In this document: positions 1 to 25,632 of the stretch, in pieces
Position numbering within the stretch: the stretch's first letter is position 1
Layout of the letters: the number at the start of each line of letters is the position of its first letter
NCBI RefSeq assembly: GCF_035084215.1
Contig: NC_090368.1
Location: forward strand, 4,712,001-4,776,000
Length of the DNA stretch: 64,000 bases
Source of the DNA: Heptranchias perlo
Lineage: Eukaryota
Direction of reading: 5' to 3'
The notes under the pieces: model-generated
Told to the model about the DNA's origin: nothing
What the model saw: the letters and a program-made list of their open reading frames with translations, nothing else
The model's database searches: none
Made by a program: the position numbers and the translations under genes

Positions 1-660
1 TACGGAGGCCCTTGTGGAGAGGCGCGCTGGATTGGCACCGGATTATGGTCAGATTGTTGCTGCTGTTCTGCATACGGAGGCCCTTGTGGAGAGGCGCGCT
101 GGATTGGCACCGGATTATGGTCAGATTGTTGCTGCTGCTCTGCATACGGAGGCCCTTGTGGAGAGGCGCGCTGGATTGGCACCGGATTATGGTCAGATTG
201 TTGCTGCTGTTCTGCATACGGAGGCCCTTGTGGAGAGAGGTGCTGGATTGGCACCAGATTATGGTCAGATTGTTGCTGCTGCTCTGCATACGGAGGCCCT
301 TGTGGAGAGAGGTGCTGGATTGGCACCAGATTATGGTCAGATTGTTGCTGCTGCTCTGCATACGGAGGCCCTTGTGGAGAGAGGTGCTGGATTGGCACCA
401 GATTATGGTCAGATTGTTGCTGCTGCTCTGCATACGGAGGCCCTTGTGGAGAGAGGTGCTGGATTGGCACCAGATTATGGTCAGATTGTTGCTGCTGCTC
501 TGCATACGGAGGGCCTTGTGGAGAGAGGCGCTGGATTGGCACCAGATTATGGTCAGACTGTTTTGGCTGCTCTGCATATGGAGGCCCTTGTGGAGAGATA
601 GGTTGGATTATTTCCAGATTATGGTCAGACTGTTGTTGCTGTTCTATATACTGAGAGCCT
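1..660. repeat. 72-bp coding minisatellite, about 9 copies
   Basis: tacggaggcc recurs at 1, 73, 145, 217 and onward. The period of 72 nt equals 24 codons, and units diverge toward 650. Confidence 0.95.
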
Positions 661-772
661 TGTGGTGAGAGAGGTTGGATCTGCCCCAGGTTACAGGCAC
701 ACTGTTGCTGCTCCCGAGACTGCGATGCACCTGGCGCGAGAGGTTGGATTTGTTGAACACTATGCTGAACCC
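1..772 (-). CDS. Array exon copy 1 (putative alternative last exon of POGZ), runs off the window edge; mostly a 24-aa repeat PYAEQQQQSDHNLVPIQHLSPQGP
   Basis: Acceptor TTTGTTCTGTAAG|GG at 772. Phase-1 reading (G)VQHSVQQIQPLAPGASQSREQQQCACNLGQIQPLSPQGSQYIEQQQQSDHNLE... stays open to base 1. Confidence 0.6.
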
Positions 773-1879
773 CTTACAGAACAAACAAAGAAAGAAATCA
801 CCTAAGTTTTGGTGCATCTAATTATCTATATAAATATATATATTATAATTTTTTTTAAATTGCGAGCCCCACTGGTCAGCCCGACCCATGCCTGTTGCTC
901 CATTCATTTCTAGACATCTGATTGGTCCTGGCTAGCCTTTTGAAAGTTCACATGATTAGCAGAGACCGACAACCTACAAGTCAACTTCAGTAGTCTCCTA
1001 CTTCAGCAACCAGGCTGCAGGTTTCACACAGACCAACAGGAGCCAAGGCAGTGCCACTGAGATTTCCTCCTGTTCTGGCACACTGAGACATAACCGCCTG
1101 GGATCTGAAGGACCAGAACTCCTGGAAGAGCCAGCCTCCAACGTGAGACTTGGACACTATTACTACACATCCTGCCCACAATTCAAATAGGCTGCCTCGT
1201 CTTCATTGTTGGACACTGTCTTCTCTGGCGGAATCATCATGCACCATGGCTGAAGTACTTGCAGCTATCCCACAGCCCAGGCTCAATTCTCGGTCTTCAT
1301 CACCCATGTCCCCTGTCTAGCCTTTGACCCCTAAATCTACTTGCTCCATCCCAGGCTCAGCCCAGTACCCCAATCGCCACCCACCCACACCCCCCCCCCC
1401 ACCAACCTATCTCGCCTCGAGTTTCTTTCCAATGATTGTCTGTTACACAGGATATGACAACACCAAGTAGAGCCACAGCTGGGAATTCATTGTATCATTC
1501 AGCCTACAGAAGGGCTGTATCCTGGCTAAGGGCCATTTTACTGCATTCGGTGGTCTTTATAAAAAGATCAAAGTTGAAATTTGAATCCAGCAGTGAAGGA
1601 TCATGTGCAAGAGGGGGGAGAAAAAAAGTGCACGTGAGACTTAGAGAGAGTGATGTTCAAAGACAAATGAAAACAAAAGGAGACTGTATGAGAGAAAGCA
1701 TGGCAGTGGGAAGAAAGAGAGATACAAAGGCCCGTGCATGCACAACTGAGTGGGACAGAAATGGAGGGAATGATGTAATTTTTTTCATCCGCTAGCAACA
1801 TAAGAGATCAACAAGTTTTTCTTTAAGACTTTTAGTTAGTTTTCTTCAGTTTCATTTCCCTTCTCTATTTTTGCCAGCA

Positions 1880-2511
1880 CTAGTCCAAACCACATGACCT
1901 CTAAGACTCTCACTACAGACACAGGCCTGTGCTCCTGTGAATGTTGGACTACTTCAAGACGACATTGGGGGTCACGATCTCTGGGTGCTCGGCTTGAAGC
2001 AGTGGCCAGCGTTTTTGAAGGCGCCAATCTCTGCTTCACCTGTGCCCCTGCCCCCCACCGATGGAGGTCCAGGATTCCAGACACCCTTTGGGTTGCGTTT
2101 GGCTCCTTTGAGAAAGTGCTGGGTAGCACGTTCCCCCAGGTGGTCGGCCTAAGTTTGTGCCATGAGCGTTCAGAGACACCAAGAGTGGCCACCCCCGCAG
2201 TCAAATGCATGCCCTTCTGGAAACACTCAGCTTCTCCAGAGAGAGGCTGATCACCACATTCCGGCGACTGCTCCCTTTCGAACTGTGCTACCCGCTTCGG
2301 GAAAGAGCAGGCTTGACTGCGCTTGCCCTGCTGTTGCACTTCAGTCAGAGGCTGACAGTTTTGGACCCTGATCATCCTTTTGCTGCTGCTCTTCAGACTC
2401 AGGGACCTTGTGGCAGGAGAGGTTGGATCTGCCCAGGATTACGAGCACACTGGCACTGTTACGAAAAACTGAGTATTAGAGGTCAGGTTTGTTGAACACT
2501 ATGCTGAACCC
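1880..2511 (-). pseudogene. Array exon copy 2, decayed
   Basis: Same acceptor (TTCTATAAG|GG GTT CAG CAT AGT GTT CAA CAA ACC TGA) but an early in-frame stop and later frameshifts. Remnant QPLTEVQQQGKRSQACSFPKRVAQFERE; poly(A) signal drifted to AATAGA (1864-1869). Confidence 0.65.
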
Positions 2512-3540
2512 CTTATAGAACAAATAAAGAATTCACCTAAGTTTTGGTACCTCTATCTGTATAAATAACAGTGCATTCATCCCAGTCAGCCCCTGCTCTG
2601 TCCAACCCTCCATTCCTTTCCAGACATCTGATTGTAACCTTTTGACAGTTTACTGTTTTATTGGTGAAATGATCATCAGGGGCCAACACAAACTGCAAGT
2701 CAACTTCAGTAGTCTCCCACTCTAGCCATTAGGCTACAGGTTTCACACAGTCCAAAAGGAGCCAACGCAGCATCACGGAGATTCAATCTTGCTTGGCTGC
2801 TGCGGGGGCTCACAGAGAAGAGGGACAATGGGCTGCGATCAGAGAGACCTGAACTCACGGAGGAGCCAGTCTCCAACAGGGGCAGTGAGACTCCGGCTCT
2901 GGTACTTCACACTGCTCAACCCTTGCCTGCAATTCAAACAGGCTCCCTCTTCATTGTTGGCCATTGGTTTCTCTTAAGGTGAACTAAACTTGCTGAAGAC
3001 CAGCTGCAATTGTTGGTCACCACCATCCATGTGCCCTTTCCAGCCTCTGGCCCCACAGCTACGCAGTCTCTCCAAGTTCCAACACCCCCCCCGCCACCCC
3101 CCCCCCCCCCACCCCAACCTAGCTGGTCTCCAGTTTTGTTCCAAGCACAGTCTGTTATACTGTGTATAGCAGAATCAATCAAGGCTACAGCTACGGATTC
3201 ATCAGAACAAGATCATTCAGTTCACAGAAGAGGTACATCCCAACTCGGCCATTTTACTGTACGAGGTGGCCTTTATAAAACGGTTAAAGATGAAGTTTGA
3301 ATCCGCAAGTAAAAAAACATGTGTAAGGAGGGGGGAAAAAAAGTGTGCGACTTACGAAAGAGTGACTGTCAAACAAATGGAAAGGGAGGAGAGAGACGGA
3401 CTGAAACACAGGGGAATGCTACTCTTTTTTAAAAAAATACGTTTGCAACACCATGGAAATCAACAAGTTTGTCCAGAGTAGATTTTTCTTATAATTAATT
3501 TTCTTAAGTTGCATTTCCCTTTGTTTTATTTTTGTCAGCA

Positions 3541-4803
3541 CTAGTCCAAACCATATGACTGCTGAGACTCACGTCGCGTCTGATCCTCTTCAGACAGAGA
3601 TGCTTGAAGTCAGGAAAGGGCAGGATCGTTTGCTATCCCGCATTTGCTGGTGTCGCCGCTGCTCATCGAGCAGAGTTGTACGCTTCCAGGAATGTTGGGC
3701 TAGTTTGAGACAACGGTGGGGAACATGTTCCTGCAGGTTCTCCGTTTGAATCCGTGCAATGTGCTTTCAGAAACGTCCGGTTCACTCTCGCGCACACCTA
3801 CTTCCGCTGCCGTTCCTCTTCAGACAAAGACTGTAGCTTCTGGGAAAGTTAGGCTAGTTCAAAGAGATGTTGGAGATCATGTTCCTGCAAGGACTTTGCT
3901 TGAATCTGTGCCACCCACTTTCAGGGACACCAAGGTAGAGTGTGCTGGATGCTCCCACCGTCACTCTTTAGTCAGAGGTACACGCTTTTGGAACTGTTGG
4001 GCCAGTTCACTAAGATGCTGGGACTCGCATTCCTGCGGGTGCTCCATTTGAATCCGTGACAAGTGCTGTGGAGGTGGCAAGCTCGCTGTTGTTCCCGCTG
4101 TTGCAGTCACCATCCCTCCACAGACGTAGGGCGTGCACTTCCGAAAACATTTGGTGAATTCAAGAGGACCCTGGGCCTTGAATCCTTGCCGCCCGCTTTT
4201 GGTGACGGCAGGCTCGTTACCGCTCGCGCCCCATCAGCCGCTGCTCATCTGCAGGTGGAGGTGCACGATTCTGGACGTGCTGGGCTAGTTCAATGAAATG
4301 TGCGGGGTGAAGATCATGCGCCTCCGGGTGTTGCGCATGAAATCGCTGCCACGTGCTTTAGGAGAAGCCAAGCTTGAATGCACTTGTGCCCCTGCTGCTT
4401 CCGCTGCTCTTCCCACTCTAACTGTGCTCAGACGCACATCCTTCGGAAAACGGAGCTTGCTCAGCAAGAGGCCGATCCTCACCTTCCCGCTGCTCCTCCC
4501 ACTAACTGTGCTGCCCTCTTTTGGAAACGACAGGCTTGCAACCTCTTGCACTGCCACTGCTCTTCAGTTGATGGCCCACCTTCTTCGATCTCTTGGTCAA
4601 TGGGCTCACTGCTCCGCCGCTGCTCTTCAGACTCGGCCCCTGGTGCTGAGAGAGTTTGGATTTGCCCAGGATTATGGCCACACAGCTGCTGTTGCTCTTC
4701 AGACTGAGGGCTCTGTGCTGAGAGGTTGGATTTGCCCCAGGCACCCAAGAGTGAGGTGCTCCCAGCACGAGAGGTTAGAGTTATTGAACATTATGCTGAA
4801 TCC
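3541..4803 (-). pseudogene. Array exon copy 3, decayed
   Basis: Acceptor TTCTGCAAG|GG ATT CAG CAT AAT GTT CAA TAA gives an early stop. Remnant modules SPQSEEQQQLCGHNPGQIQ and KRLQACRFQKRAAQ; AATAAA at 3525-3530. Confidence 0.65.
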
Positions 4804-5828
4804 CTTGCAGAATTTTTAAAAATCACCTAACTACTGGTGCATCTACTTACATTAAAATAATTGTGCCTGCCCTGTCTGTGGTTTCTCCAGTGTCCGTCAC
4901 TTCATTCATTTCCAGATATCTGGTTGGTCTTTGCTAACCAGGAAGCAGTTTGATGCATGACTGTTCAAATTGTTAGCAAGTGTCTGGTCACAACATTGAA
5001 GGGAAATTCAATGATTCCCTCCCTTGTGCAGGGTCAAGAGAACTAAGCCAGCTCTGCCAAAATTCCCTCGAGCTGCTGCAGCTCACCATGGAGAAGTGGT
5101 GGGATGAATTTGAGCCAGCAGATCGCAGGATAAGTCAACCTGCACTAACCCACACCCTGCCCCATTGATCAAATAGGTTTCTTCATCAACATCAGCCGCT
5201 GAATATCTCCACTCGTCCAACCCAGACTAAAATCGGGTTGAAGAAATGGTGACTATTACAGAGTCTGGCTCATTTCTCAGTCACTGCCACCCCTGCCCCC
5301 TTTCCAGCCCTTAGCCGACCTGCTCTAGGTCAGACCAAGCCCCACCCTTGCCTGCAGTCTCTCTCCAATTTGATACACAGGGAATGCCTGTACCAATCTG
5401 GGCCACAGCTACGAATTCACTTCAAGTCCATTCAACCTATGGAAAGGTTACAAGCCCGTTAAGGGCCATTTTTCTGTATCTGGTGGTCTATTGAAAAAAA
5501 AGGTCAAGGATTCAATTTGAGTACCTCAGTAAAAGGGACGTAAGTGAGTGGAAAAGAAAGAAGAATGCAAGACTTAAAGAAAGTGTGACAGTCAGAGATA
5601 TACAGAGGTGATAACAGGGGAAAGCATATGAGAGGGCAGAAAGGAAAGAGAAAGGGAAAAAGAGAGACAAAGTTAACATATAAGAAATAGAGTGGTACAA
5701 AATGCGGGGGTGCAGTTAAAGTGGGAGAACAAATTTTACATCGGTTAGCAACACCATGGAAGATCGACTAGTTTTTTCTGAACAGAGTTTTCGTTCAGTT
5801 AGTTTCTCTAAGATGTTTTTCCCATCAA

Positions 5829-5834
5829 TTTATT
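5829..5834 (-). terminator. Poly(A) signal AATAAA after array exon copy 4
   Basis: TTTATT on the + strand about 30 nt past the stop; same position in copies 3 and 6. Confidence 0.55.
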
Positions 5835-5866
5835 TTTGCCAGCACTTGTCCAAACTACACAACTTC

Positions 5867-6969
5867 TTAAGACTCACACTGCAGCTGGTCCTCTTGAGAT
5901 GTAAGTGCACGCTTCTGGAAACTTTGAGCTAGTTCGAGAAGACGCTGGGGATCGCGTTCCTGCGGGTTCTCCGCTTGAACCTGCGCAATGCGCTTTCGAA
6001 GACGGCAGGCCCGCTTGCTCTCGCGCATTTGCTTCCGCCGCCGTTGTCGCCGTTCCTCTTCAGACAGAGACGCACGCCTCCGGGAACGTTGGGCTAGTTC
6101 AATCAGACGTTGGGGATCACCTTCCTGTTGCAGCTCTGCTCGAATCCGTGCCATACGCATTCGGAGTCGGTAAGCTCGAGTGCGCTCGCACTGCTGTCGC
6201 CGGCGTTGTTCTGCGGATGGAGCTGGGCGCATCTTGGAGCGCTGGGCCAATTCGAGAAGACGCTGGGGATCACATTCCTCTGGATGCGCTGCTTGAATCT
6301 GTGACACGCGCTTTCGGAGACGCCAAGCTTGGGTGCGCTCGCGTCCCCGCTGCCGCCGCTGCTCTTCGGTCAGCGCTGCACGTTTTTGGAGACACTGGGT
6401 TGGCTCGGAGAGACACAGGCGCTCGTACTCCTGGACCTGCTCAGCTAGACGCAGACGTTCACGCTCCCGCTGCTGCTCAAACTGCGCCGCCCGCTTTCTA
6501 AGACGGTAAGCCCGGGTGCGCTTGCACTGCTGCCAACGCCGCTCCGCCTCAGACAGAGGTGCTCGCTTCCGGAGGCGTTGGGCTAGTTCGAGAAGACGCT
6601 GGGGATCGTGTTCCTGCGGGTTCTCTGCTTGAGCCAGCGCCATGCGCTTTCGGAGACGGCAGGCCCGCTGGCGCTCGCGGCCCCGTTGCCGCCGCTGCTC
6701 TTCGGTCAGGGGCAGGCGCTTTCGGATCCATCGGTCAATTTGCTTCCTGCTCTGTTGCTGCTGCTCTTCAGACTCGGGCCCTGGTGACGAGACAAGTTGG
6801 ATTTGGCCCCGATTATGGTCACGTTGTGCCTGCTGTTCTTCAGACTGAGGGCTTTGTGGTGATAGCAGTTGGATTTGCCCCAAATTATGGCCACACTGTT
6901 GCTGCAGCTCCCGAGGCTGAGGTGCACCTGGTAGGAGAGGTTGGATTTGTTGAACACTATGCTGAACCC
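5867..6969 (-). CDS. Array exon copy 4, intact (~367 codons): Q/P-rich modules plus five Arg-rich basic modules
   Basis: Acceptor TTTGTCCTGTAAG|GG at 6969. The phase-1 frame is continuous with ORF 5867..6883 to TAA. AATAAA at 5829-5834; CpG-rich. Confidence 0.7.
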
Positions 6970-7049
6970 CTTACAGGACAAATAAATAAAAGAAATCACC
7001 TAAGGTTTGGTGTGAAGAGAGAGAATAAATTAAAAGATTTATGTACAAT

Positions 7050-7540
7050 TTAGACTCCCCTGCCACCTCAGGAAGGACAATGTGGCTCTGGTGAAGTTGC
7101 AGAGAAGAGCAGCAAGGTAGATCCCTGGCCTGAGATCATCGAGCTGTGAAGATAAGACTTGATGCCTTGCAATTGTATTCACTGGAGAGACAGATTTAGA
7201 AGGATCTGATCCAAATATTTAACGTTATTAAAGGCATAGACAACATCAGGTAGATAATGTGTTTGAGGTGATGAGCTTCAGAGAACTAGGGGCCATCCAA
7301 TTAAACTGAGAAAGCAGGGCTTGAGGTTAGATCTCCAGAGGTTTTACTTTTCTCAGAGGGTGATTGACCTGTGGAACTGAGGACTGTCTCTTATACAGAC
7401 CTCCAAGAAAGTGTTGGATGAATTTTTGGAAAACACGATGATCACAGCATATGGAAGGCAAGACTAATTATCGTGGGAAAGTAACCAATGGGTTCGGGGG
7501 TTGCTTGATGGTCTTTCTCAGCCTGATTATGTAATATAGG
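7050..7540 (+). mobile_element. Old CR1-type LINE 3' fragment inserted just upstream of the copy 4 acceptor
   Basis: Decayed CR1 ORF2 C-terminal sequence (gaactaggggccatccaattaaactg; tttctcagagggtgattgacctgtggaac) interrupts the array spacer. Confidence 0.65.
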
Positions 7541-8419
7541 CTCATCGGTCTGATTTCTTCCAGACATCTGATTAGTTCCTATTAACCACATGATACTTTA
7601 AAATATTTGTCAAGTGCTTACTACGGACCAACCCAATCCTCAACCCAATTTCAGCAGTCTCCTGCTCTGTGAAATCCAGCAGGGGCCAAGGCAGCCCCAC
7701 CGATATTCCCTCCAGCTTGGCTGCTACAACTCTGAAGAAAGCACAACAGGTTGGGATTTGAGGGATCAGAACTGATGGGAGTATCTGGCCTCCCAAGAGC
7801 AACTGAGAGACTCGAGCTCCAACAATTCACACATTACCCAGGCCCATGCCCTCAATTCAAATATGCTCCCTTTTCATTAACAGTGGCCGCATTTCTCTTA
7901 TCATGCTGAAGAACTTGCGGCTGCCCCAGATCCCACGCTCAATTCTTGGTCACTGGCACCCATACCTTCTAACCAGCCACCAGCCCCAAACTACTTGCTC
8001 TATTCTGGATGGAACCCTCTCCCCCACCCCCGACCAAATTCTGGCTTCCAGTTTCTCTCATCCAAAGCTGTGACACTGGATATGTCAGAAGAAATCTGGG
8101 CCACAGCTATGGGTTCATCGCGACAAGACCAGTCAAGTCCACACACACACATCCCACTCGGGGCTATTTTAAACAAATCTTTAAACTTAAAGATGCAATT
8201 TTAGCTTAAAGAACACGCGTGAGAGGGAGAGAGAGCACAAGGCTTAGAATGTGACAGAGACAAATGGAGAGACAGATAGAATGAGTTCCAGAATGGGACA
8301 AAAAAAAGGACATGCTGAAGAGTGCAGATGAACAGAGCGATCTAAGGTTTCAACTACATAACTCCCACAGTGCACGTAGATAAAGCCATAAAAAAAGTCA
8401 ACAGCAATTTGGATTTTAT

Positions 8420-8890
8420 AAATAGGGGCAAAGAGCACGAGAGTAATGAATAATAAGTACTGGTTAGGCCACAGGTAGAAAATTGTGTGCCGCGTTAGAG
8501 AAAGGAGATTAAAGCCATAGAATGCCTACAATATAGATTCAGCAGGATGCAAAATTATCGTTATCAGGAGAAGACTCAGTGGAGATTTAATTATCAAGAA
8601 TTTTGATGATGTGAATTGGGAACAATTATTTTGTCCAGTTGGGGAATTATATACAAGGGGCCATCAATTTAAAATGGTCACGGAGCACGGAAAGATAGGA
8701 GACATTTCTTCATTGTTGGAGCATGGAAAGGTTTGCCACGGGGAATGGTTAAGGCAGAGTTCACTGCATCTTTAAAGCTAAAAGTGGATAAATATTTGAA
8801 GCCAGGCGGCTACAGGGGAAGAAAGCGAGTCAGTAGACCTCCTCCTGTACATGCTGTAAATGTACCGCCTTCTGTACGTGCTGTAAACAA
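8420..8890 (+). mobile_element. Old CR1-type LINE fragment at the 3' end of array copy 5
   Basis: ctggttaggccacag..; acaagggggccatcaatttaaaatggtc; aagtggataaatatttgaag. Confidence 0.55.
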
Positions 8891-8972
8891 CGGCAGTTCT
8901 AGGAGGGGAGATGCACAATATTTTTCAGCCATTGTTCTTCAGACATAGGCGCATGCTTCTGGGGCCATTGGG

Positions 8973-9556
8973 CTAGTTCAGGACGACACTGGAATCACGT
9001 TCATGCAGATGTTCTGCTGGAATCTGTGCTGCGCGATGTCGCAGACGATAAGCTCGGGCGCGCTCACGCCACCGTCGACGCTGCTCCTCTTCAGATAGTG
9101 GGGCGCGCTTTTGAGCTTGCACTCCTCCCTGCTGCTCCTGTTCGCACTTTACCGCCCGCTTTCGGAGGCGGCAGGCTCGCTGCCGCTGGCGCCCCCGCTC
9201 GCGCCTCCGCTCTGCATCCGATGCAGGTCCGCGCTTCTGGGCGCATCTGGCCAGCTCCAGGAGCCGCTGGGGATCGTGTTCCTGCGGGTGCTCCGCCCGG
9301 AGCCGCGCCAAGCGCTTTCGGAGACGGCAGGCTTGTTGGCGCTCGCACTGCCGCCGTCGCTGTTGTTCAGTTAAAGGTGGACGCTTTCTGTTTATCCGGT
9401 CAGTGTCCTCACTTTCCTGCTGCAGCTCTTCAGACTGAGGGGCTTGTGGTGAGAGAGGTTGGATTTGGTCCGGATTATGGCCACACTGCTGCTGCTCCTG
9501 AGACTGAGATGTACCTGGTACAAGAGGTTGGATTTGTTGAACACTATGCTGAACCC
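8973..9556 (-). CDS. Array exon copy 5 (~194 codons), three basic modules, frameshifted and truncated at the 3' end
   Basis: Acceptor TTTTGTTCTGTAAG|GG at 9556, in frame with ORF 8973..9311. A 1-nt shift near 8995 gives an early TAG, and the normal 3' end is replaced by a CR1 fragment. Confidence 0.55.
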
Positions 9557-9704
9557 CTTACAGAACAAAAAGAAAACACCTAAATTTTGGTGCATCCCTC
9601 TATATATAAAAAAAATTACATCTATCCCATCCATTGGTCTTTCCCCGACTGATTCCCCATTCATTTCCAGACATCCAATAGGTACTTGCTTACCAAGCAA
9701 CAGT

Positions 9705-10115
9705 TTTGAATCATAGTCATAGAGAGATACAGCACAGGAGGCCATTCAGCCCAAGATGCCTGTGCCAGCTCTTTGAAAGAGCTGTCCAATTAGTCCCACT
9801 GCTCTTACCCCAATAGCCCTGCAAATTTTTCCCCTTCAGGTATTTATCCAAATTCCCTTTTGAAAGTTATTATTGAATCTGCCCTTTCAGGCAGCGCATT
9901 CCAGATCATAACTCGCTGCGTAAATTTTTTTTCCTCATGTCGCCTCTGGTGCTTTTGTCAATTATCTTAAATCTGGGCCCTCTGGTTACCAACTCTTCTG
10001 CCACTGGAAACAGTTTCTCCTTATTTACTCTATCAAAGCCCTTCATGATTTTGAACACCTCTATCAAATCTCACCTTAACCACCTCTGCGCTAAGGAGAA
10101 TAACGCAAGTTTCTC
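9705..10115 (-). mobile_element. CR1/HER1-like LINE 3' fragment
   Basis: ggccattcagccc..gctctttgaaagagc..ccctttcaggcagcgcattccagatcataactcgctgcgt; same family at 47200 and 42720. Confidence 0.8.
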
Positions 10116-11014
10116 TAGTTTGATCCATTACTGGTCACGTAGTTGGCAAGTGACCAACCACAGCCTCCAAGGGAACTTAAACGTCCTCTTGCGCCATGCA
10201 GGTCAAGGGAAACAAAGGCAGTCCCGCCAAGGTTCGCTCATGAGCTGCTACGGCCCACAACAAAGGCATGTTGCATCAGGATTTGACCCACCAGAACCCA
10301 GGAGAAGGCGACACCCAATAACCCACCCTTCACACCCTCTTCATCAGTGGCCACTGTCATCTCCACAGAGAGACGACCCCAGACCAAAATCATAACGAAG
10401 GAATAATGACTTTTTCAGAAGTCAGCCTGCATCTTAGCCTCAGTCCCTGCCATAAACACTAGCATTCAGCACTCGTCTCCAAACTCGCTTCTATTCTTAG
10501 CCCTTGCCTCTGTCGTTTCCCAGACTGCAGCCTTCAGTTTCTCCCTCGCTCGTGCATGCTGCAGTGGCTCGCAGCTGTGTCAATACCAGTCTGGGCCGCA
10601 GTTCCAGATCCAGATACAACAATTGGAAAACCATGTGGCCCAGAATAAGGTACCTCCCAGCCCAGACCCCATCATATATTGCATGCCCTGGGATATATAT
10701 AAAAAAAGGTAAGAGATACAAATTGTGTAAATCAGTAAAGGAACGTGTGCAAGAGGCATACAGAGTGTGTGCAAGATATCCTGAGGAGAGTGAAGACAGG
10801 GTAAAGGAAAGACAAGTATGTGAGGGAAGAGAGAGAGAGGAGGAAAAGAGAGAAAACATGAATGAATTAGAGCGTGACAAAAGATGCAGATACAGTCACA
10901 GGAGGGGAGCATTATTACTTTTTTCATCCGTTAGCAACACCATGGAGATCAACTAGTTTTTCCGTGGTAGATTTTTCTTTAAATTAGTTTTCCTAAATTG
11001 TATTTCCCTTCAGT

Positions 11015-11020
11015 TTTATT
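11015..11020 (-). terminator. Poly(A) signal AATAAA after array exon copy 6
   Basis: TTTATT on the + strand, 12 nt past the TAA stop. Confidence 0.55.
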
Positions 11021-11032
11021 TTTTTGCCAGCA

Positions 11033-11835
11033 TTAGTCCAAAATACACAATTTTAAAGCTTCATGCTGCAACTGCTCCCCTTGAGATGTAGATGCACGCT
11101 TTTGCGAGAGCTGGACTAGTTCAAGGAGGCGCTGAGGGTCGTGTTCTTCGGGGTGCTCTGCTTTAATCTGTGCCAAGCGCTTTCGGAGACGGTAAGCTCG
11201 CTGACGCTCGCAGCCCCGCAGCCTCCGCTGCTCTTTGATCACAAGTGCGCGCTTCTGAGATTCTTCGGCCACACGCAGACACTCCCGCTCCTGGGCTTCT
11301 TTGACCAGACGCAGGCGCTCCTGTTCCTGCAGCCGCTCCCTTTCCAGCCTCGCTGCCTGCTTTCGGAGACGGCAGGCCCGCTGACGCTCACGCCCCCGCT
11401 CACGTTCCCGTTGCCGCCGCTGCTCAGGCGGGGGTACACACTTCTGGGCAGTTTGGGTTAGTTCAAGAAGACGCTGGGGATCATGTTCCTGCGGGTGCTC
11501 CGCCTGGAGCCGTGCCAAGCGCTTTCGGAGACGGCAGGCTTGTTGGCGCTCGCACTGCCGCCGTCGTTGCTGTTCAGTCAGAGGTGGTCGCTTTCGCATC
11601 CCTTGGTCAATGGACTCACTTTTCTGTTGCTGCTCCTCAGACAGAGAGCTTTGTGGTGACAAAGATTGCATTTGCCCAGGATTATAGTTAGACTGTTGCT
11701 GCCGCTCGTCAGACTGAGGGCTTTGTGGTGAGAGAGGTTGGATTTGGTCCGGATTATGGTCACACTCTTGTTGCTCCCGAGGCAGAGATGCACCTGGTAC
11801 GAGAGGTTGGATTGGTTGAACACTATGCTGAACCC
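11033..11835 (-). CDS. Array exon copy 6, intact (~267 codons), three basic modules
   Basis: Acceptor TTTGTTCTGTAAG|GG at 11835, in frame with ORF 11033..11671 (…LKLCILD*). AATAAA at 11015-11020. Confidence 0.7.
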
Positions 11836-13432
11836 CTTACAGAACAAATAAAGAAAACACCTAAATTTTGGTGCGTCTATCTATAAACACAAGTCTATAT
11901 ATTGTGTCTGTCCTGTCTGATAGTCCCTCCCACAATTTGTCCCTCAATTAATTATCTGATCAGTCCTTGCTAACCAAGCAACAGTTTGATGCATAACTGG
12001 TCACTTGGTCATTCAATGGTTTCAGGACAATGAGAACTAAGACAGCCCTCATGAGCTGCTGCAGACCGTAATTAAGGTATGATGGGCCAAGATTAGAGCC
12101 ACCAGAACCCAGAGAAAGTCAACCTCCAACAACAGTGGTGGCAGTGGCTCAGGCTCTTCACTGAAGGCCGCTGTCATCTGCAGTGGGGCCAACCTAGACC
12201 GAAATTAAGCTGCTGAAGCAGTACTGACTGCTCCACAGTCCCAGCCTGGATCTTGTCCCCTGCCCTGTCCAGCCTATATGCCTCCAGCCTTCTTCTCACT
12301 ACTTCCTCCTATTCTCAGCCTAGGCCTATATCCTTGCTCAAGCTGCAGTCCCCAGTTTCTCACTCACCCGCTTGTGGTGCAGGGGCCCCATGGATGTGTC
12401 AACACTGGTCTGGAAGACCATTTGGTCCAGAGTAGAGATCCCTCCCAGCCCATGCCCCATCGTGTATGGCCCTGGGCTTTTTTTTTAAAAAAAGGGGAAA
12501 TATACAAATTAGATCAATAAGAAAAGAACATGTGCAAGAGGCAAACATGAGAGATTGCAAGATATACTGAAGGGAGAGCAGACAGGGAAGAAGTGACAAG
12601 CATGTGAGCGCGCACGAGAGAGAGCAGAGACAGACAGAGAGAAAAAAAGATTCCCCCACCCCGTACAAACGATGGGAGACCAACTGATTTTTCCCTCATT
12701 CCATGCTGTATTTTTGTCACCGCTGTTTGACTTCCCAATTTATGTTTCATTTCTCCCTCAGTGATTCCCCCACTCTAACCCTGTTTTAGCTTATCTCCCT
12801 CGCTTCCCACAGTAATTTATTTACGAGTCATCTCCCGAGGAGAGAGTTAAAAGTCTAAGACTGGAAATGACACTACGCACTATTATCTTGCCAACACTTT
12901 ACGCCTTCGTATCGAATTTGTTTATCAGTTATTCGAGCCTGTTGACATGTTAATATTGCAGACCGTCATTTCTACACTGTGAAATTTCATTTAAAAAAGT
13001 GGTTAAAATTTTTTATTTTGGTTCGTTATGTGTGGTTCACTATGTCATTTGATGATTGGCACCAGTAAGGCCAAGGATTCGACTCAGCTACGTGACAAGG
13101 AGTAGGGGCTATGTAACAGATACTCTGACAGCTGATATCATCCAGCGTGATCAATATATTTATGGGTCCCTCAAGACACCTTTTTAAAAATATATACGAG
13201 TGGTGTTACACTCGGGGAGTAAAGATGGGTGAAAGCAGGGTTAAAGGACAGGGAATAATTGGCCAGGACACACAGACGTAACTCAGTCCCCATTTTAAAG
13301 TCATAGATTCTGCTCTTATTTTTATATAATGCTTTAATTTTACATTATTTCTAGGGAAGTAGCTAAATTCCTGGCATCTTGGGAAGCAGAATTGTTTGGA
13401 GCAGAGGAGTTTTTCAGAGAAGCCAGGAGACA

Positions 13433-13703
13433 AGGATTGCCAACTCTGGTTGGATGCATTCCTGAAAGTTTCATCACATGAATATCCGCTTCCAAACACC
13501 CTCCCCAGTCCAACAGCCTTCCCCACCAGCCATCTCCAATATTTTTATAAATAATAAACAGAAGTGTTCAAAGAAAATAGAAAAAACGTACAATTTTGTT
13601 TAATGCCCCAATGATTTTTCTCCTTGGGTTTTTTTTTTGCTCGCAGCAGTGTCCAGGAGATTAATCTTTAATTTAAGGGCAATCCTGGAGGGTTGGCACC
13701 TTA
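13433..13703. mobile_element. Decayed hAT-type MITE
   Basis: Imperfect terminal inverted repeats aggattgccaactct … agggttggcacct. Confidence 0.5.
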
Positions 13704-16034
13704 CGGGAGACTGAAAAACGAGGAGCTACAATACCATCACTGGCAGGTGGGTGTAATTACAGCGTGACAAGTTTACATAGGCAGTTTCCATTATAAAAGT
13801 GGACATAGGAATTTCTAATGGGAAAAAGTTGACACTTGGTGTGACAAACTATGACAAGAGGCAAAGTTTGATACACAGAAAGTGTGCACAGAAGCAAGGT
13901 TTTTAATATATTATAGGTTTGGACCTGCTTGTGGTTAAGATGCAACTCCTAACTTTTTTTTAAAACCTGATGTATTTGCTGCTCAATGGACGGCTGAAGG
14001 TAAACATAGTTCGTAGTTTTGCTGCCAATTGCCACCCTCAGGGTACCATAAAAAAAGTGTAGAAGATCCACAAGGTATTATTGAAAATCTCATGAAAAAA
14101 TATTTTACTTTTGTGCTTGAAAAAAACCCCTCAGAATAGATTTTTTTTTGAAGAATGTTTTTGTGTGCTATTCTAATAAGATTCAATTTTCAGTCCTCTA
14201 TCCTCATATGAAAGTTAATTGCTACCAATGGTTCCCTCGATAACATGAACAAAAATACATTTATCAGAACGGTGCGTGATAGAAAACTATTTAATCCCTA
14301 AAAGAATTCCTTTTGTTGAGCTTCACAATATAATAAATGGGTAGCAAATGTCCACACCTCTCAAAAAGCTAAATTTGGCAAAGTGATGGAAGTGCTTTGA
14401 GCACTTTGTTCTATTGCTCAACTTAGTCTCACATCTGGCGATCTATTTAAAGTTTTTTGCGCCTTGTGTGTGCCAATGGTTACTTTTGTGGTTGCCGATT
14501 AATTGATACTGATTAGCAATACCGTTGACCAATGAAGCGCACGAAGTGAGGGCAGAAGGGGCATTTGTCAGTATTTTAATTACAATAATTGCAACAGCCC
14601 CGAGATCCCTGAGCTCATCACCAACTCCAATGCTCTCCCTGGCTTTTGCCCCAGTCTCAAACCCATGCCTCTACCCCACCAGTATCACCATTTCCTTGTT
14701 CAGCCCCATCCTGGACAATGGTGGCAGCCTCTTGCTCCTGCTCTCCCAAGCACCAAACACTCGGCCCCCCACTCAGCACTGGGCCACCGTTTTAATGTCC
14801 TGCTGGGTGTCAAGAGGCCCAGGACCAGCCTCCCCCACCAATTCTGCAGCCAGCATCCTCACCGAGATGGCCCAGACTGAGTCAATTTCTGGGCCAGAAA
14901 GTCCCTCTATCTGCGGCTTGGCCTGTCCTGTCCCTCATCTCCTGTGTTCAACCTCACTTGGAGTAGGAGCTACACCCACACCAGCAACTCCAGCAACCAG
15001 ACCCAAACTACCTGCAGCACTGGTAAGAGAATCAGGCCAATCCTGAGGATATCAAATCGTAATATAACATTCACAGGACAATGACCAAATATAATTGATT
15101 GTAATGCACAACTGTAACCATAAAAATGACAGAAGAGCCCGTTACTGGGGTCCTCAGGGTAGTGCTAAAATAAACAGTCACATGAATAATCACGTTAATA
15201 ACACTATATAAATATTGAGAGAGACAGCCCACTCCTGTAGCAATAATATAAATACAGTTTTAATATATAAATAGAATATATACTAGTTAATCTCCCATGC
15301 TGTGGCTCACAGACAAAAAGAAAAACATTGATTTCTCCAAATAACTAAATCCCTACTCCTGTCCCTCCAATTCTACGTCTCTCTCTGTCTGTCTTTCACT
15401 CCATGTCTCCCTCATTCTCACCTTCTGCTGGGCTGAGACACTAAGGAAAAGCAAATCCAAGAACTCTGCGAGCTTGGGGCATACTAACCTCAGACTCAGA
15501 TTGGGTCTAATGAAGGAAATTAGATGCACAAATCAAAGCAATTATAAATTGAAATCCTTGGCCTCGGTTTAAAAAGAAAACCCTCAAGATATACATAAAC
15601 TCCAAAGAAATTTAGCAATTTGACAAACAGGCTTGCAGTTTTTGAAGTGCATAAAAATAGGTTTTTAGTCATGAATGGCTTCCGACCTGCCGGCAGAGGC
15701 ACACAATTAATGTAGCAAGTTCCCTACTCAAGCAGGAAAAAATTAAATAAACAATATTTCCGACCATCTGGCAGAGGCTGGCATCAGTACACAAGAAATA
15801 TAGTAAAACTGGTCCCAACGCAAGCAGGCAAATGATAACAAAATAAAAGCATTGCAAGGATGAACAGCTAAAGAGGATGCACAGCAAACAATTCTAAAAT
15901 AAATAACACAGCTTATATTTAATAAATTACAACTCCTGTCGCTCTTCACGCCCCAAACCCAGCCCTACCATATCTTGACCTGATCACTCAGTATATAAAA
16001 TCTATACCTGTCTTATCAGATGTCTTGAGGGAAT

Positions 16035-16530
16035 TACATAGAATGTAGAGCACAGAAACAGGCCATTCAGCCAAACTGGTCTGTGCTGGTGTTTATGCTC
16101 CACACGAGCCTCCTCCTCCTTCCCCTCTTCATCTCACCCTCTCAGCACATCCTTCTAATCCTTTCTCCCTCATGTGTTTATCTAGCTTCCCCTTAAATCC
16201 ATCTATGTTATTCGCTTCTACCACTCCTTGGGATAGCGAGTTCACATTCTAATCACTCTCTGGGTAAAGAAGTTTCTCCTGAATTCCCGATTGGATTTAT
16301 TAGTGACTCTCTTATATTTATGGGCCCCTAGTTTCGGTCTACCCCACAAGGGGAAACATCTTCTCTACGTCCACCCTATCGAACCCTTTCATAACCTTAA
16401 AGACCTCTACCAGGTCACCCCTCAGTCTTCTCTTTTCTAGAGGAAAGAGCCCCAGCCTGTTCAATCTTTCCTGATCATTATAACCTCTCAGTTCTGGTAT
16501 CATCCTTGTGAATCTTTTTTTGCACCTTCT
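16035..16530 (-). mobile_element. CR1-type LINE 3' fragment
   Basis: cacagaaacaggccattcagcc…cactctctgggtaaagaagtttctcctgaattcc; same family at 34560, 42130 and 51150. Confidence 0.8.
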
Positions 16531-19500
16531 CTACAGAGCTAGAGAGTGCCTTTGGGCAGATTGCAGAACCAGAGGCCACTGCCCCTTCAGCTAATCAAGA
16601 TATACTGACCACGGCCCGTCAGACATCTGTTTCTGCCGTGGGATTTCCAGGCTGAGCATCAGAGACTTCACATTTTGGACTTCTTACATCCCAGTTAGAA
16701 ACTGGTATATCCCCAGGCTCGCCGTGAGCAATGCGATGAGACGCAGTAATTAAGAAAGCTGGTATCCGGCACACCTGCAGGGCCATTTTTGTGAGTGCTG
16801 ATCGGTTCAAATGCAGACCATCACAATTTACATGTAACAATCATACTTCATGGACAGTGCTGCTAGAACAATAAGGATGGAGCTTAGACAAAAATGGAGC
16901 CCAGGGAAGGTACTCACAGAAATTTTTTTTTAAATGTACACATAATATGACAACTCCAAAACTCTAACCTCATCACCAAACCTGTTGCACTCACTGGCCA
17001 CCAACCTAGCCTCTGCTAGCCATCCCAACCCAAAGAACCCCTCTGCTCCTAACCTAACCCTCAAAAGCTTTTTTCCAATTCATACCCCACGACACAGCGA
17101 GATCCACCCCAGGCACCAGCTTTCCCAGACAGACCAACCCAGGCCCAGGACTTTCCCGCTCCCACTTGCTAGCCAGCGAGAGGGACCTCGCTCTCTCTGC
17201 TCTAAATCAGACACTACCCAAGCTCTCCGCCACCCCCCACCCCCACCACGTGCTCCTTTCCGTTGCTCCATGCCATGGTTCCCTCCCATTTCCTCCTAGG
17301 CAATCTCTGAGCAACACCACGGGAGATATGCTAGGATATAAAACATATAGCAATGCAATCGCACAATCGAGTAACCCACGACGCCACAGCAATGGCTGGC
17401 TAACTCTCAACTATACAATTTAGCCTCGGAACCACACTCCTTTTAAAATAAACTTCCTTGAGTAATCCAAAAATAGGAAGCTGAACACACTGCAATTGCA
17501 CAAAAAAAACAAGACTTTTCCCAAGTCTACAAAAAGCCTCACAGAAAAAGGTCACCAGTCAGCAACGACTTCTAACCTTCTGGCAAACACTGCAACACTG
17601 GCACCGAGAAGAGGCTACCAGGGACCAAAGACAGGGGAGATTTGACATTCACATGATTTTAACAGACCAAGCAAATCTCTAGCAATGGGCAGGCAGGTTT
17701 TAGATTTCTATTAAAAAGTAGGCATGTCACCATCTAACTAGTCATCAAAAGGGGGAAAACAGAGAGGGGGGAAAAAAAAGTCTAGATGAGGTTCACCATG
17801 CATCGAACATCAGCCACACAGACCGATAAAGTTCTAAATTCAATGCTCAATCTGTGCTGATTCGTTGATCTCAGCCAAAGCTGTGGTACAATTGGCGGCA
17901 GCACCCTCGCGTTGAGAGGGAGGGGAAAAAATGCAAGGGTTCCTACTAGTGATCACTAACAAGTGCGCTCGCATGGGCATTGGGGGAGGACAGGCCATAG
18001 ATGGGTTAGTGATGTCTCCAAATACAGTCGAATAGCAGGCTGAAACTTATCGTAAAGGCTCAGACATGAATAATGGCAACTGCATCTCAGCCAGAGAGGA
18101 GGGAAGAGAAAATAGGTGAGGAAAAGAAAAAGAGTTGCATGTTTTAAAGGGGAATGACATTCCAAGTGAGTTTGCTTACTATGCAACTTAATTTTCTTCC
18201 TGCATACCTTAATGCATTTATTGAAGGGTTAGGAGCATCACTATCCAACTCTCTTTGTTGCATCCTAATGGGTTTAGTGGGGTGGTAGTGTTGGCAGCTC
18301 CTGATATGCAGGTCCTAGCATTGCTCCTGGAAATCCCCCCACAACCGCTGGATTTGATGATGTCGGCTGTCAGGAGGAAAGGGTAGAAACGGATTTTCCA
18401 AGCTGCCTTAGAGAATCTGGCAAGTTCACTTTGAGGCCGTCTCGGCTATGCAAGAGCCACAAATTGGGAGCCACAGGCACTAGTGCCAGTACAAAGAGCG
18501 GCTAAATCAGGGTGGGCAAACAGGTCCTTTGAACCATCCAGTTGACATAGGCCACAGACTCTTTCTAAGCTGATCATCTATATTTTATCAGCAGGAGTAG
18601 CTAGTTTATCAATAATTGAATAGCAAATGAGTTAAGAGAACAATGAAAGGTTATAGCAGGAAATCAATTGCATTTTAACTACTTTTATGTAACATCCTTC
18701 CCCTTTATTGATGTACTATAGTCCTTGTTGGCTTAGTTGGAGAGTGTGAATGAATGTATGCTAATTGGCCTATTGGGTAATGCAGTTTTGTTAATGGTCT
18801 CTTTGAAATGCATTTTCGAAGGGAAAATAGTTCCAGTAATTCGAAGAGTCACATAAAGGACAATAAGTTCATCATCAATAAAGCCAGTACGAGACCAGGC
18901 ATTTACACCACAATGCCAGATAATGAAGGGCTTCAATAGGGTCCGATACACAAGAACCCATTGATGTCCCTCCCCTGTTCTCACAACTCCGACTCATGCT
19001 AGAGTATGATTCTACTGGCATCAAAAGGTTCTTTGGCTTGAAGTGGCCAATCTCCATGCATGAGCCTCGACGACGTTGGTGGGCTATTTGATCCTGGAGG
19101 ACGTCGCAGCCAAGCCCAATCCAGACCTTCCCCCCCTAATGTCCACACACGCACACTTTCCAGATGTCACTGGACAGCTAACCTTTGCTGACTGGATCAA
19201 CAAAAAGCAGGGGTTTTAAACTGGAACCAATATCATCACTGGCAGCAAGCGTGAAGGGAAGGTAAAACCTGGGAAATACGTGAGAGAGTCAGGTCACCAA
19301 ATCCTGAGGCTTTTTGTTTGAATTTTAAACTACAAACAACAAAAGTATTACTGTGGGCGGCACCACATCCCAGTGTGATCCGTCATCTCACAATCAAGGA
19401 ATAAGAGAAAACGTTGCTTATATCCAGATTTTAAAACATCAGGATTTACTATAGTAGTACCTATTATGCTAGGGATAATGAGATTTAATAGCAAGCATGC

Positions 19501-19545
19501 ATGAGATTTCATTCTATAACCTACCTGGTCCATTGCTCCACATAC

Positions 19546-19660
19546 CTGGCACTAAAGTCAAAGGTTTAGTTTGGTATGGGGCTGTTCCCTGACCACCCTG
19601 TACATTGAGCACGATCCCAACCGGATTCTGTACAGATCTCAGGTCTTTCACGGTGAAACC
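19546..19660 (-). CDS. POGZ: POGZ coding exon 4 ([38 protein letters not shown]), ends in phase 1
   Basis: TTCTCCTCAG|GGT…CCA G|GTATGT; 115 nt; resembles human [36 protein letters not shown]. Confidence 0.9.
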
Positions 19661-19909
19661 CTGAGGAGAAGAAACAGAACACAATGTTAATCCTCAAATA
19701 ACCTTAAAAAAAACACTCTTGAATCTGTGTAAAAAAAAAGTTTTACAAAGATTTAAAGGCAATGGTGCTAACAATGCAATAATAAAAATGCATAAAGAAA
19801 AAGCAAGTCCAACAGGAGTTGCTGTCTTTTCAAAGTCTTTACAAAATCTTTTAAAAAGTACTGGTGCCTGTCCCATTGCAATGCTCATGGTCAGTCAGAT
19901 AATACAATA

Positions 19910-21556: not shown

Positions 21557-21738
21557 TTGAGTGGTGATCAAGATGGGCTGCCCCGACACAGTGCTGGTTG
21601 CCCCAGTCTTTGGATCCTGCAGTACTTGCACAGTCGTGGGCTGGTACATTGACGACACGGTCATTTGTGAACCAAGACCAGATGGATTCTGTGCTACAAT
21701 CAAAGGCTGACCGCCTGAATTCATCACAGGAGCACCAG
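21557..21738 (-). CDS. POGZ: POGZ coding exon 3 (AGAPVMNSGGQPLIVAQNPSGLG…SGQPILITTQ)
   Basis: TTTTTCAG|CT…CAA|GTAAGA; 182 nt; resembles human [24 protein letters not shown]…SQPIFITTQ. Confidence 0.92.
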
Positions 21739-23979: not shown

Positions 23980-24078
23980 CATTGTTGTTTGAGGAAAGGA
24001 CTGTCAGCATAGCCTTTTTTCCAGCCTCATTGTTCTGCAGATCACCAATGCTTGCAAGAGCAAATCCAGGCTTAATAC
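23980..24078 (-). CDS. POGZ: POGZ coding exon 2 (GIKPGFALASIGDLQNNEAGKKAMLTVLSSNNN)
   Basis: TTCTCAAG|GT…AAT G|GTAAGT; 99 nt, phase 1-1; resembles human QNSDSTKKTLVTLIANNN. Confidence 0.8.
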
Positions 24079-24644
24079 CTTGAGAAGCAGAGAAAACATG
24101 TACTCTTTCAAAAACTACCAGTCATGATCTCCAGTACACTTTCAAAATGGGATCCACAGACCTCCAGGAGAGCCCTGGCTGTCATTTCTGTGCCCACAAG
24201 ATTAATGTATTTTGTTTGAATTAGTTCTCGATCAACTTTACTCGTAATGAAGTTTCGATCATTAAATCTGTGGCGTGAACACAGATCAACATGGAACAGA
24301 CCGGCATCCATAGAAACAGACACAACCTGCAAATTGACCCAAAGTTGAAACAAAACAAACTGAATCTTTCAATGTACCACTCGGTGATTACAAGGTAATT
24401 TAACACTGCAGTTGAAATGAAATTAATAGTTTTAAACCTTACAAGGTCTGCCGTCGCGGTTTCTTGATTTGATTACTACCTTCCTAACCCTATATACTAT
24501 TTCAATAATCCTGTGTCACCAAATCTTCCATTCCAAATGAAAACCAAGACCAATCCCACTCCACAAAACCACAGACTACTTCCTACAGCCTCAGATTTCA
24601 AACTGGAGTCTGTGACTGGATTCCAGGTAGCTTGCAAAATCATC

Positions 24645-25024
24645 ACGAGCAAATTCTCAACACTACATCTCCAGGAGAATGCAAATATTTGCAGGGGTAC
24701 GCGGAAAAACATTGATAGTTGAAGGGGGCCCCCGGGAGACAACTAGCGTTTTCCAGGAGGCCTTCGAGAGAAAGCCAGTATCTGCAAGGGGTTTGGGGGG
24801 GGGCGAGCTGATACGGGGAGAATGCCAATATCTTCACGGGGTTCTCCATGAGGATGCAAATATTTGCAGGGAGTCCCCGATATAGGGCCAGTATTTAGGA
24901 TGGGGATGTCCTCGGGAGACCGCCAATAGTTGCAGAGAGCCCCTGGGAGAATGTCACTATTTGCCAAGGGCCCTTGAGAATGTGTTATGAGCTGCAAACA
25001 CTGAAAAAAGTTTAAAAACCACTG
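24645..25024. mobile_element. Decayed hAT/Charlie-like MITE with internal ~27-bp subrepeats
   Basis: Ends aaaaagtttaaaaaccactg (reverse of CAGTGGTT…). Subrepeats resemble gggagaatgccaatatttgcagggg. Confidence 0.5.
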
Positions 25025-25505
25025 ACCGACAACTGGACAGAGCATCCCACATACTAAATGAACATATTTTCCCACCAATGTTGAAGTCAAATATATTCTT
25101 ATACAATTCCCAAACATTAGCCAGCACTGGCTGTTGAGGGGGGAGAATAGAGAATCTCAGTCCTAGGCTGAGCAGTCATCCCGGAGAGAGAAAAAGGGAA
25201 TTGTTTGCGGGTATAGTTATCAGGCACACTCTGGAACCTCACCCAAATGGCCAATCTTCATGTGTGAGCTTAAAGACAGTGACTGGCATGAGGCTACTTC
25301 ACCACTGTGGAGGGGCAACAACTGATCCCATCCACATGCACTTTCTAGCAGGGGGACACATAGTAATCAGGAGTGGGGACCAGAGCTCCTCTCCATAGGG
25401 TATGAGCACTGAAGCTATTTGTAGCTCTGCTATCATCGCCCCAATTCAGATCAGCTGATGCAACATGGATCAGTAATCAAACCAATGGCATTTTAAAAAA
25501 ATTAC

Positions 25506-25632
25506 CTGTACTGATGTTGGTTGCCGATAGCAACATCCCACCACCAGTATCGTCCACAACATCATCTTCTATGAGCTGCCACGGCTCCAGCTCCTCTTCC
25601 TCACACTCCATAAAAAGATCCGTGTCCGCCAT
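25506..25632 (-). CDS. POGZ: POGZ first coding exon ([28 protein letters not shown]…)
   Basis: Diagnostic POGZ N-terminus [19 protein letters not shown]; acceptor GTTTCAG| at 25643; donor G|GTAAT. Confidence 0.95.

Follow-up and report, generated by a model that had tools for sequence, protein, structure and literature searches.

The POGZ locus and its constant exons

The window analysed here is a stretch of 64,000 nucleotides (nt) from the shark Heptranchias perlo (NC_090368.1, 4,712,001-4,776,000; G000:C47:4712001-4776000 in our coordinates of the 3.25-Gb genome), in which the 5' part of a gene for POGZ lies on the minus strand and is followed by a tandem array of exons. An initial annotation had proposed that this array supplies alternative last exons to a constant POGZ N-terminus. 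We fetched 120 kb to the left of the window, as that annotation had advised, and found four further copies of the array exon together with the canonical exon 5 of POGZ; positions in this extension are negative numbers (G000:C47 coordinate minus 4712000).

The 5' part of POGZ comprises four coding exons, which are bordered by GT-AG, add up to 523 nt, end in phase 1 at 19546 and encode a constant N-terminus of 174 amino acids (aa), which is low-complexity POGZ sequence. The donors at 23980 and 25506 are of phase 1, as had been noted. About a dozen canonical exons follow the array (an approximate count), and they match shark POGZ pieces at 49-98% identity. The terminal DDE exon matches Pfam DDE_1 at E 8e-12 and is 71-72% identical to catshark POGZ. 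Judged from its sequence, the host gene is a POGZ ortholog, since the N-terminal acidic motif, the zinc-finger cluster and the terminal pogo DDE exon reside in one gene. The array is nested in the 29-kb intron 4 of a POGZ gene that looks intact, in contrast to one study that places cartilaginous-fish POGZ among pseudogenes (PMC7386202). Because the zinc-finger and DDE exons follow the array, full-length POGZ is kept as the distal choice; the earlier idea that this part is replaced by the array did not hold.

The sole other genome match of exon 1 is a ZNF280-like paralog (G000:C37:16579145 onward, L024-L032), which shares the N-terminal acidic motif and zinc-finger exons with POGZ and has neither a DDE match nor, in the 80 kb examined, a tandem exon array. 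A protein search with exon 3 found nothing. The three public shark POGZ models retrieved (P0002, P0003, P0004) all lack the N-terminal half. With such truncated models, and with one array copy listed in databases as a protein of its own, existing annotation could have obscured the array.

A tandem array of ten exon copies in intron 4

Intron 4 carries one exon in ten tandem copies, of which the window includes six and the left-hand extension four. Six of the ten have an open frame that continues the phase of exon 4 and encodes 152-597 aa; the other four are decayed (Table 1). The six minus-strand exons recognised at the outset (starting at 11835, 9556, 6969, 4803, 2511 and 772) were confirmed, each being preceded by AAG and a pyrimidine tract of 52-83%; four of them proved to be open, while the frames of 4803 and 2511 close after 7 and 9 codons. 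The phase-1 donor at 19546 matches the copies. Joined in silico to exon 4, the window copies give, in order, tails of 267, 194, 367, 7, 9 and >257 aa, and the joins reproduce the reading ...PLTLVP-G-VQHSVQ[Q/P]IQPL... Donor-acceptor joins were stop-free in 14 of 14 cases tested.

The acceptors are preserved in all six open copies. A strong donor pattern is absent inside all six open exons, and GTRAG occurs within 500 nt after the stop in two of them. AATAAA follows three of the six open copies. A stop plus AATAAA had been assigned to three copies, and the signals at 11020, 5834 and 3530 are indeed present; the last, however, belongs to copy 4803, which is a decayed exon, its AATAAA notwithstanding, because it stops after 7 codons. 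The statement that the exons have no ATG of their own holds for copy 9556, and copy 8 likewise has none; the other open copies contain internal methionines (e.g., Met56 in copy 11835).

The copies are spaced 1.6-2.6 kb apart, and their 5' ends share 49-89% DNA identity. The spacers also align between copies (69-81% over the aligned parts), so the whole unit was duplicated. The array exons show no match to the canonical exons of POGZ, and no additional exon copy was found between 11836 and 19545.

Several further features of the array were observed. Four open copies have a further in-frame CAG|G acceptor inside the exon, 42 nt from its start (11793, 9514, 6927 and 730, minus strand), which mimics the end of exon 4 (PLVP-G) and is lost in the other six copies. 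Copy 772 holds an in-frame expansion of a 72-nt tandem repeat (a 24-aa Gln/Pro unit, about 11 copies) over 1-752 and ~90 nt past the left edge. The block AAACTAGTTGATCTCCATGGTGTTG recurs after eight of the ten copies, decayed ones included (e.g., at 10959, 5774, 3469 and 1818), and is possibly part of a 3'-end signal. Short repeat fragments are common to 13228-13834, upstream of the array, and L011 8220-8851, in the spacer after copy 772 (76-90% over ~90 nt, one pair inverted); they may represent a small mobile element.

Table 1. Exons of the POGZ gene and copies of the array exon. Plain positions are those of the window.
Feature	Position	Strand	Description	Contigs
POGZ coding exon 1	25506..25632	-	phase-1 donor	
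POGZ coding exon 2	23980..24078	-	99 nt, phase 1 to 1	
POGZ coding exon 3	21557..21738	-	182 nt, phase 1 to 0	
POGZ coding exon 4, last constant exon	19546..19660	-	phase-1 donor at 19546	covered by X4 record 32
Exon 4 extension	19525..19545	-	21 nt, +7 codons, second phase-1 donor CAG|GTAGGT	X4 record 32 end
Copy 1 (11835)	11033..11835	-	open, 267 aa, two repeat units, AATAAA at 11020, in-frame internal acceptor 11793	in 4/4 runs; three leave the genome at 11790-11791
Copy 2 (9556)	8973..9556	-	open, 194 aa, no Met; early end via frameshift near 3' end	
Copy 3 (6969)	5867..6969	-	open, 367 aa, four repeat units, AATAAA at 5834	covered
Copy 4 (4803)	3545..4803	-	decayed, stop at codon 8, frameshifts, AATAAA at 3530	
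Copy 5 (2511)	1885..2511	-	decayed, stop at codon 10	
Copy 6 (772)	1..772, crossing the window edge to G000:C47:4710980	-	open, 597 aa, two repeat units	X4 record 25
Copy 7	G000:C47:4710137-4709173 (start -1863)	-	open, 321 aa, AATAAA directly after stop	
Copy 8	G000:C47:4708219-4707762 (start -3781)	-	open, 152 aa, diverged, no Met	
Copy 9	start G000:C47:4706611 (-5389)	-	decayed	
Copy 10	start G000:C47:4705000 (-7000)	-	decayed, acceptor AG lost	
Canonical POGZ exon 5	start G000:C47:4702271 (-9729), ~9.7 kb left of the window	-	phase 1	
POGZ zinc-finger exons, then terminal DDE exon	beyond the window edge, to about G000:C47:4683420	-	open frames	

Selection on the tails

The ratio of nonsynonymous to synonymous divergence (dN/dS), pooled over 11 ungapped 34-codon repeat cores of the tails, is 0.31, and the nonsynonymous proportion is below the synonymous one (pN<pS) in 55 of 55 pairs, although these pairs are non-independent and the cores are anchored on a conserved motif. 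For whole tails, dN/dS is 0.28-0.55 among the five best-kept copies and 0.39-0.83 for copy 8. We also used DNA-only alignments, which are free of protein-alignment bias. Differences at codon positions 1/2/3 amount to 0.24/0.24/0.34 between open copies, 0.28/0.29/0.30 between open and broken copies, and 0.26/0.27/0.27 in spacers. The third-position excess is clear in open-open pairs, little in open-broken pairs and absent from spacers. Gaps in multiples of three number 69 of 136, 65 of 212 and 89 of 361, respectively. The five best-kept copies are under purifying selection on the protein frame.

The constraint is also found upstream of any methionine, with dN/dS 0.41 over codons 2-42. The first methionine lies at codons 56, 110, 123 and 392 in four open copies, and copies 9556 and 8 contain none, so an upstream start is needed. 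In simulated neutral decay, each open frame survives in at most about 5% of cases at 0.1 substitutions per site, as compared with the dS of 0.6-2.0 among the best copies. Constraint ahead of the methionine, open copies without one and poor neutral survival together argue that the tails have been translated from a start further upstream, in phase with POGZ.

The same data bear on the possibility that the array is an attenuator, in which splicing to a proximal copy would cut the transcript short at the expense of full-length POGZ, with tail proteins of minor importance now, selection that is historical and an array in decay. Four of the ten copies are dead, one is shortened and another is near neutral at the upper end of its dN/dS range, and the contig depth on the copies, a measure that cannot rank expression, is low, all of which would fit such a role. 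However, an acceptor and a poly(A) site would suffice for an attenuator, whereas five copies keep frames of 194-597 codons at the dS given above and with third-position bias. The open copies also retain more CpG (observed/expected 0.67-0.97) than the two decayed in-window copies (0.41-0.60), the decayed copy 9 being an exception at 0.87. We therefore regard attenuation as an unlikely account of the array, and translated alternative last exons as the better one.

Confinement of the array exons to the locus

Own-genome searches by DNA, protein and pattern placed every significant match at the POGZ array locus, with 24 of 24, 14 of 14 and 17 of 18 matches there (all counts being lower bounds) and a lone exception at E 5.4. 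The acceptor pattern search gave six matches with at most one mismatch, all in the array. Six scattered two-mismatch matches to the acceptor 20-mer are near the chance expectation (roughly 10 by estimate). The exception (G000:C7:97202769-97202891, L033) aligns a repeat with a basic helix in an unrelated 440-aa frame and is probably due to chance; the frame, which we take to be KANSL1-like, is a possible lead to the origin of the module. A metagenome match (L034) is a chance frame in a bacterial contig.

Genome-wide dispersal as a transposon, which the initial annotation had considered, was thus not seen. The copies could still be remnants of a transposon or satellite amplified locally, with apparent splicing as noise; POGZ itself is a transposase fusion according to PMC7386202, and the spacer that follows copy 772 shares with the region near 13.2-13.8 kb some small repeat fragments, one of which is inverted. 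Against this, no dispersed copy was found elsewhere in the genome by any of the three kinds of search, no Pfam transposon domain was found in the tails, and the codon-position bias is confined to the open copies. We consider this origin of the signals highly improbable, and the copies are better read as exons of POGZ.

The tail protein and its repeat module

The tails consist of a Gln/Pro-rich linker of ~24-aa repeats followed by one to four units of 51-55 aa; in copy 8, the repeat unit is unrecognisable. The unit consensus is RER-RA-RLRKR-A---AEHPQEHDPQRLLELAQ, with 11 invariant positions in 11 units, and the net charge of the tails ranges from +4 to +37. Searches of Pfam, PDB sequences, Atlas and Foldseek returned no significant family for the tails (in Foldseek, no row at E<=0.001). 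The 367-aa tail, searched against a protein library, found only the locus's own 212-aa open reading frame among 8000 scored candidates, and a six-tail profile against 1.84 billion representatives found the same frame only. These blanks say little about other sharks because, in the length range searched, the library gave only three N-terminally truncated shark POGZ models.

AlphaFold predicts one unit as a long helix that a short loop connects to a second, short one, and its three-unit model is unpacked (predicted template modelling score 0.34). The best VIA structure match has Z 6.9 with a root mean square deviation of 2.2 Å over 50 residues, which is within common helical arrangements. Likewise, the VIA and Atlas structure rows, comprising a small bacterial antitoxin, histone-fold halves and coiled coils (Z <=6.9), were set aside as common arrangements.

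A homodimer of one unit is predicted at 0.50, as compared with 0.02 for the best control, with contact agreement between runs of at least 92% and a predicted local distance difference test score of at least 79. In calibration on microbial structures, 21 of 30 solved pairs attained the dimer mark, as against 0 of 23 single chains; on eukaryotic ones, 17 of 29 pairs did so (7 of 16 for animals; 1 of 7 for those without an older relative), as against 0 of 30 single chains. In the model, the long helices run antiparallel to each other, Ala15 and Leu18 are packed against the short helix of the partner, and the contacts include 18-25', 21-21' and 28-14'. The invariant Ala15, Leu18, Arg21, Leu38 and Leu41 lie at the modelled interface, and the first ten residues of the unit, mostly Arg and Gln, are outside the confident dimer contacts. 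The model supports a dimerising module with basic arms. That it self-associates as an antiparallel four-helix bundle whose Arg-rich arms bind nucleic acid, the latter being read from charge alone, is a possibility to which we would give somewhat less than even odds.

Assembled contigs across the locus

We used assembled contigs, presumed to be of RNA, from four runs of one sample in one study. They were placed on 640-19800, and the results hold among the 32 pieces listed (10,508 further pieces being unlisted). The four runs hold 19-29% of the sequence words of 5750-11900. X4 record 32 (depth 50) covers exon 4, ends exactly at donor 19525 and carries 449 letters that do not fit intron 3, which is about the length of exons 1-3 plus the untranslated region. 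Because this spliced contig of depth 50 ends there, 19525 may be a major donor of exon 4. The match of X4 record 25 stops exactly at the AG of acceptor 772; the break fits an upstream exon ending in AG (19546, 19525 or 25506) and misfits 23980 and 21557.

The contigs of copy 11835 from X2, X3 and X4 have 32 unplaced letters each and start 30, 29 and 30 letters upstream of 11793. If a GT donor were joined to 11793, a piece should start at 11791 and have 32 letters assigned elsewhere, as found for X2 and X4. This junction reading rests on assembly forks at k=31 and on the placement cut rule. We infer splicing into copies 11835 (at 11793) and 772 from the geometry of the contigs, not from junction letters. 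The interval 17254-18531 has zero cover in all runs and is uninformative. X2 record 13 (9483-9658) differs from the assembly at five positions and has 36 unplaced letters, possibly reflecting a second allele or an unassembled copy.

A proposed birth-and-death set of alternative last exons

We interpret the array as a birth-and-death set of alternative last exons in POGZ intron 4, with exon 4 cis-spliced either to one copy, where the transcript terminates, or past the array to exon 5, and we put the probability of this reading at roughly 0.75. It is carried by the observed anatomy, phase, confinement to the locus and selection on the protein frame. The proposal of a constant POGZ N-terminus with variable Arg-rich last exons thus stands by phase, selection, confinement and, indirectly, the contigs of one sample; the donor and acceptor seen in the contigs (19525 and 11793) differ from those first proposed.

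In this mechanism, tandem duplication of a ~2 kb unit comprising an acceptor, one coding exon, a stop, a 3' end signal and a spacer would have produced the ten copies. Exon 4, through its phase-1 donor at 19546 or 19525, would be spliced in cis to one copy and the transcript would end there, with polyadenylation presumably at the AATAAA sites; alternatively, splicing past the whole array to canonical exon 5 would yield full-length POGZ. All copies lie on the POGZ sense strand, so cis-splicing suffices. The products would be ~330-780 aa long, joining the 174-aa POGZ N-terminus to a Gln/Pro-rich linker and, mostly, one to four basic helical modules of ~52 aa, and would be without the DDE region and all zinc fingers, including the finger that binds HP1. 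One POGZ gene probably makes a family of short proteins with a shared start and arginine-rich helical tails.

The function of these proteins could be to retarget the POGZ N-terminus or to lower full-length POGZ. CHAMP1, HP1 and SETDB1 bind zinc-finger and C-terminal parts of POGZ (PMC11832927), contacts that are modelled and partly tested. Short forms without these regions should therefore retarget the recruits of the N-terminus and may lower full-length output; that the tails are nevertheless selected in frame with the first 174 residues hints at a function of the POGZ N-terminus. The abstract of a study of ZNF280A reports no self-association of its N-terminus by yeast two-hybrid, whereas one sentence in the accessible text reads the opposite (PMC8382608). 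On the strength of this result, the constant part is probably no BTB-like dimeriser; the variable part may dimerise.

Several observations weigh against alternative last exons. The contig data display no junction sequence, and X3 is cut one base off the junction prediction; its 29-letter start would imply a sister path beginning with G and then a non-T, such as the GG of most array acceptors. Of the 32 pieces listed, 13 fall mainly within spacers or introns, and even the decayed copies have cover, so that cover alone is no proof of splicing. The contig 5705-5928 extends 129 nt beyond the AATAAA at 5834, and no canonical AATAAA lies closer than 200 nt to the stop in copies 9556, 772 and 8. The dimer is a prediction, and the protein searches gave no tail homolog from another species. 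NCBI and UniRef carry copy 11835 as a stand-alone 212-aa protein starting at Met56, and one contig crosses the 9556 acceptor unspliced, with five differences.

The last two points, like the contigs that cover DNA upstream of copies 11835, 6969 and 4803, would suit a cluster of small intronless genes nested in POGZ, each with a promoter and an internal start methionine of its own and with an incidental match to the POGZ phase. Such genes are difficult to reconcile with the two open copies that have no methionine at all, the late first methionine of the others and the constraint on codons 2-42. Moreover, the six open copies keep their acceptors, and contigs break at acceptors. We regard separate genes as very unlikely and retain alternative last exons of POGZ.

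Neighbouring features of the window

Upstream of POGZ on the same strand, 49091-49414 (minus strand) contains a proteasome beta subunit exon (Pfam Proteasome, E 0.064), which we take to be PSMB4-like; human PSMB4 and POGZ are neighbours but convergent. A frameshifted long interspersed element (LINE) lies at 59309-62147 (plus strand), presumably with endonuclease- and reverse-transcriptase-like frames, and related fragments and short interspersed elements are scattered across the window.

Comparison with known systems

Arginine-rich helices also occur in STPR proteins (FMBP-1, ZNF821), bZIP basic regions and bHLH proteins. bHLH proteins form a parallel four-helix dimer recognised by the HLH profile. 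None of the 11 units matches this profile at E<=10, and the predicted dimer is antiparallel, for which reason a bHLH-like register was dropped. The leucine zipper of bZIP proteins is absent from the shark tail, for which bZIP_1 (E 0.099) and an STPR cluster in Atlas (0.75) are weak leads. STPR repeats are in tandem like those of the shark tails; as described in PMC4856987, they are strict 23-residue repeats with Glu1, Thr/Ser2 and Arg9. We rejected this assignment given the spacing of 51-55 aa as against 23 and no STPR match in Pfam or PDB sequences.

Among exon systems, the tandem arrays known from vertebrates mostly concern variable first exons. Clustered protocadherins and UGT1A splice tandem variable exons, pseudo-exons among them, to constant exons; they are the mirror image of the POGZ array, with the first exon varied by promoter choice, whereas here the last exon would be varied, by choice of acceptor and poly(A) site. 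CSB-PGBD3, LAP2alpha/TMPO and PML isoforms join a host N-terminus to an intronic terminal exon and keep the full-length form, but these are single captured exons or unrelated 3' ends, and no transposase domain was found in the shark tails. The terminal exons of CAPZB, human capping protein beta, form a pair, whereas the shark array has ten copies without a match to the canonical exons of its gene. According to PMC3228551, the duplicated homologous 3'-terminal exons of CAPZB serve as multiple poly(A) sites. Duplicated homologous terminal exons in vertebrates are therefore already known; what is new is the scale, the nesting, the birth-and-death pattern and the tail module, which has no match in the libraries searched. 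A literature search, mostly of open-access titles without supplements, gave no account of such an array in print, and the accessible parts of two POGZ preprints (10.1101/2025.11.25.690524 and 10.1101/2021.06.28.447216) contain nothing bearing on it.

Large isoform systems with a constant start and variable ends are textbook cases for insect BTB genes. As the shark POGZ gene probably does, lola and mod(mdg4) join a constant N-terminal part to one of many last exons. Each of these has its own 3' end; in the shark, AATAAA as a putative signal follows three of six open copies. The likeness to both genes that had been suggested for this locus stands for the architecture and goes no further, with no BTB domain, no zinc-finger tails and no sign of trans-splicing. 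Of the 20 last exons of lola, 17 encode zinc fingers (PMC10551640), and both genes use trans-splicing (PMC3228551). Here, a Pfam scan of exons 1 and 4 gave no match, and no zinc-finger or FLYWCH match was found in six of six open tails. In contrast to the insect genes, the shark array consists of close tandem duplicates with dead members, inside an intron ahead of further canonical exons. The locus is lola-like in architecture and not a member of the lola family.

As a tentative extension, and one that we think more doubtful than probable, cartilaginous fishes would possess a vertebrate counterpart of lola: six or more functional last exons, chosen under regulation, would yield a family of nuclear proteins in which the conserved POGZ/ZNF280 N-terminal motif is combined with a new dimerising basic-helix module, and these isoforms would form combinatorial pairs, associate with nucleic acid and act as competitors of the full-length POGZ that binds HP1 and CHAMP1. 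More generally, ten last exons in tandem, some live and some dead, inside a conserved, dosage-sensitive chromatin gene would mean that the design of the insect BTB genes arose independently in a vertebrate, and the locus would offer a natural model of one donor choosing among many terminal exons.

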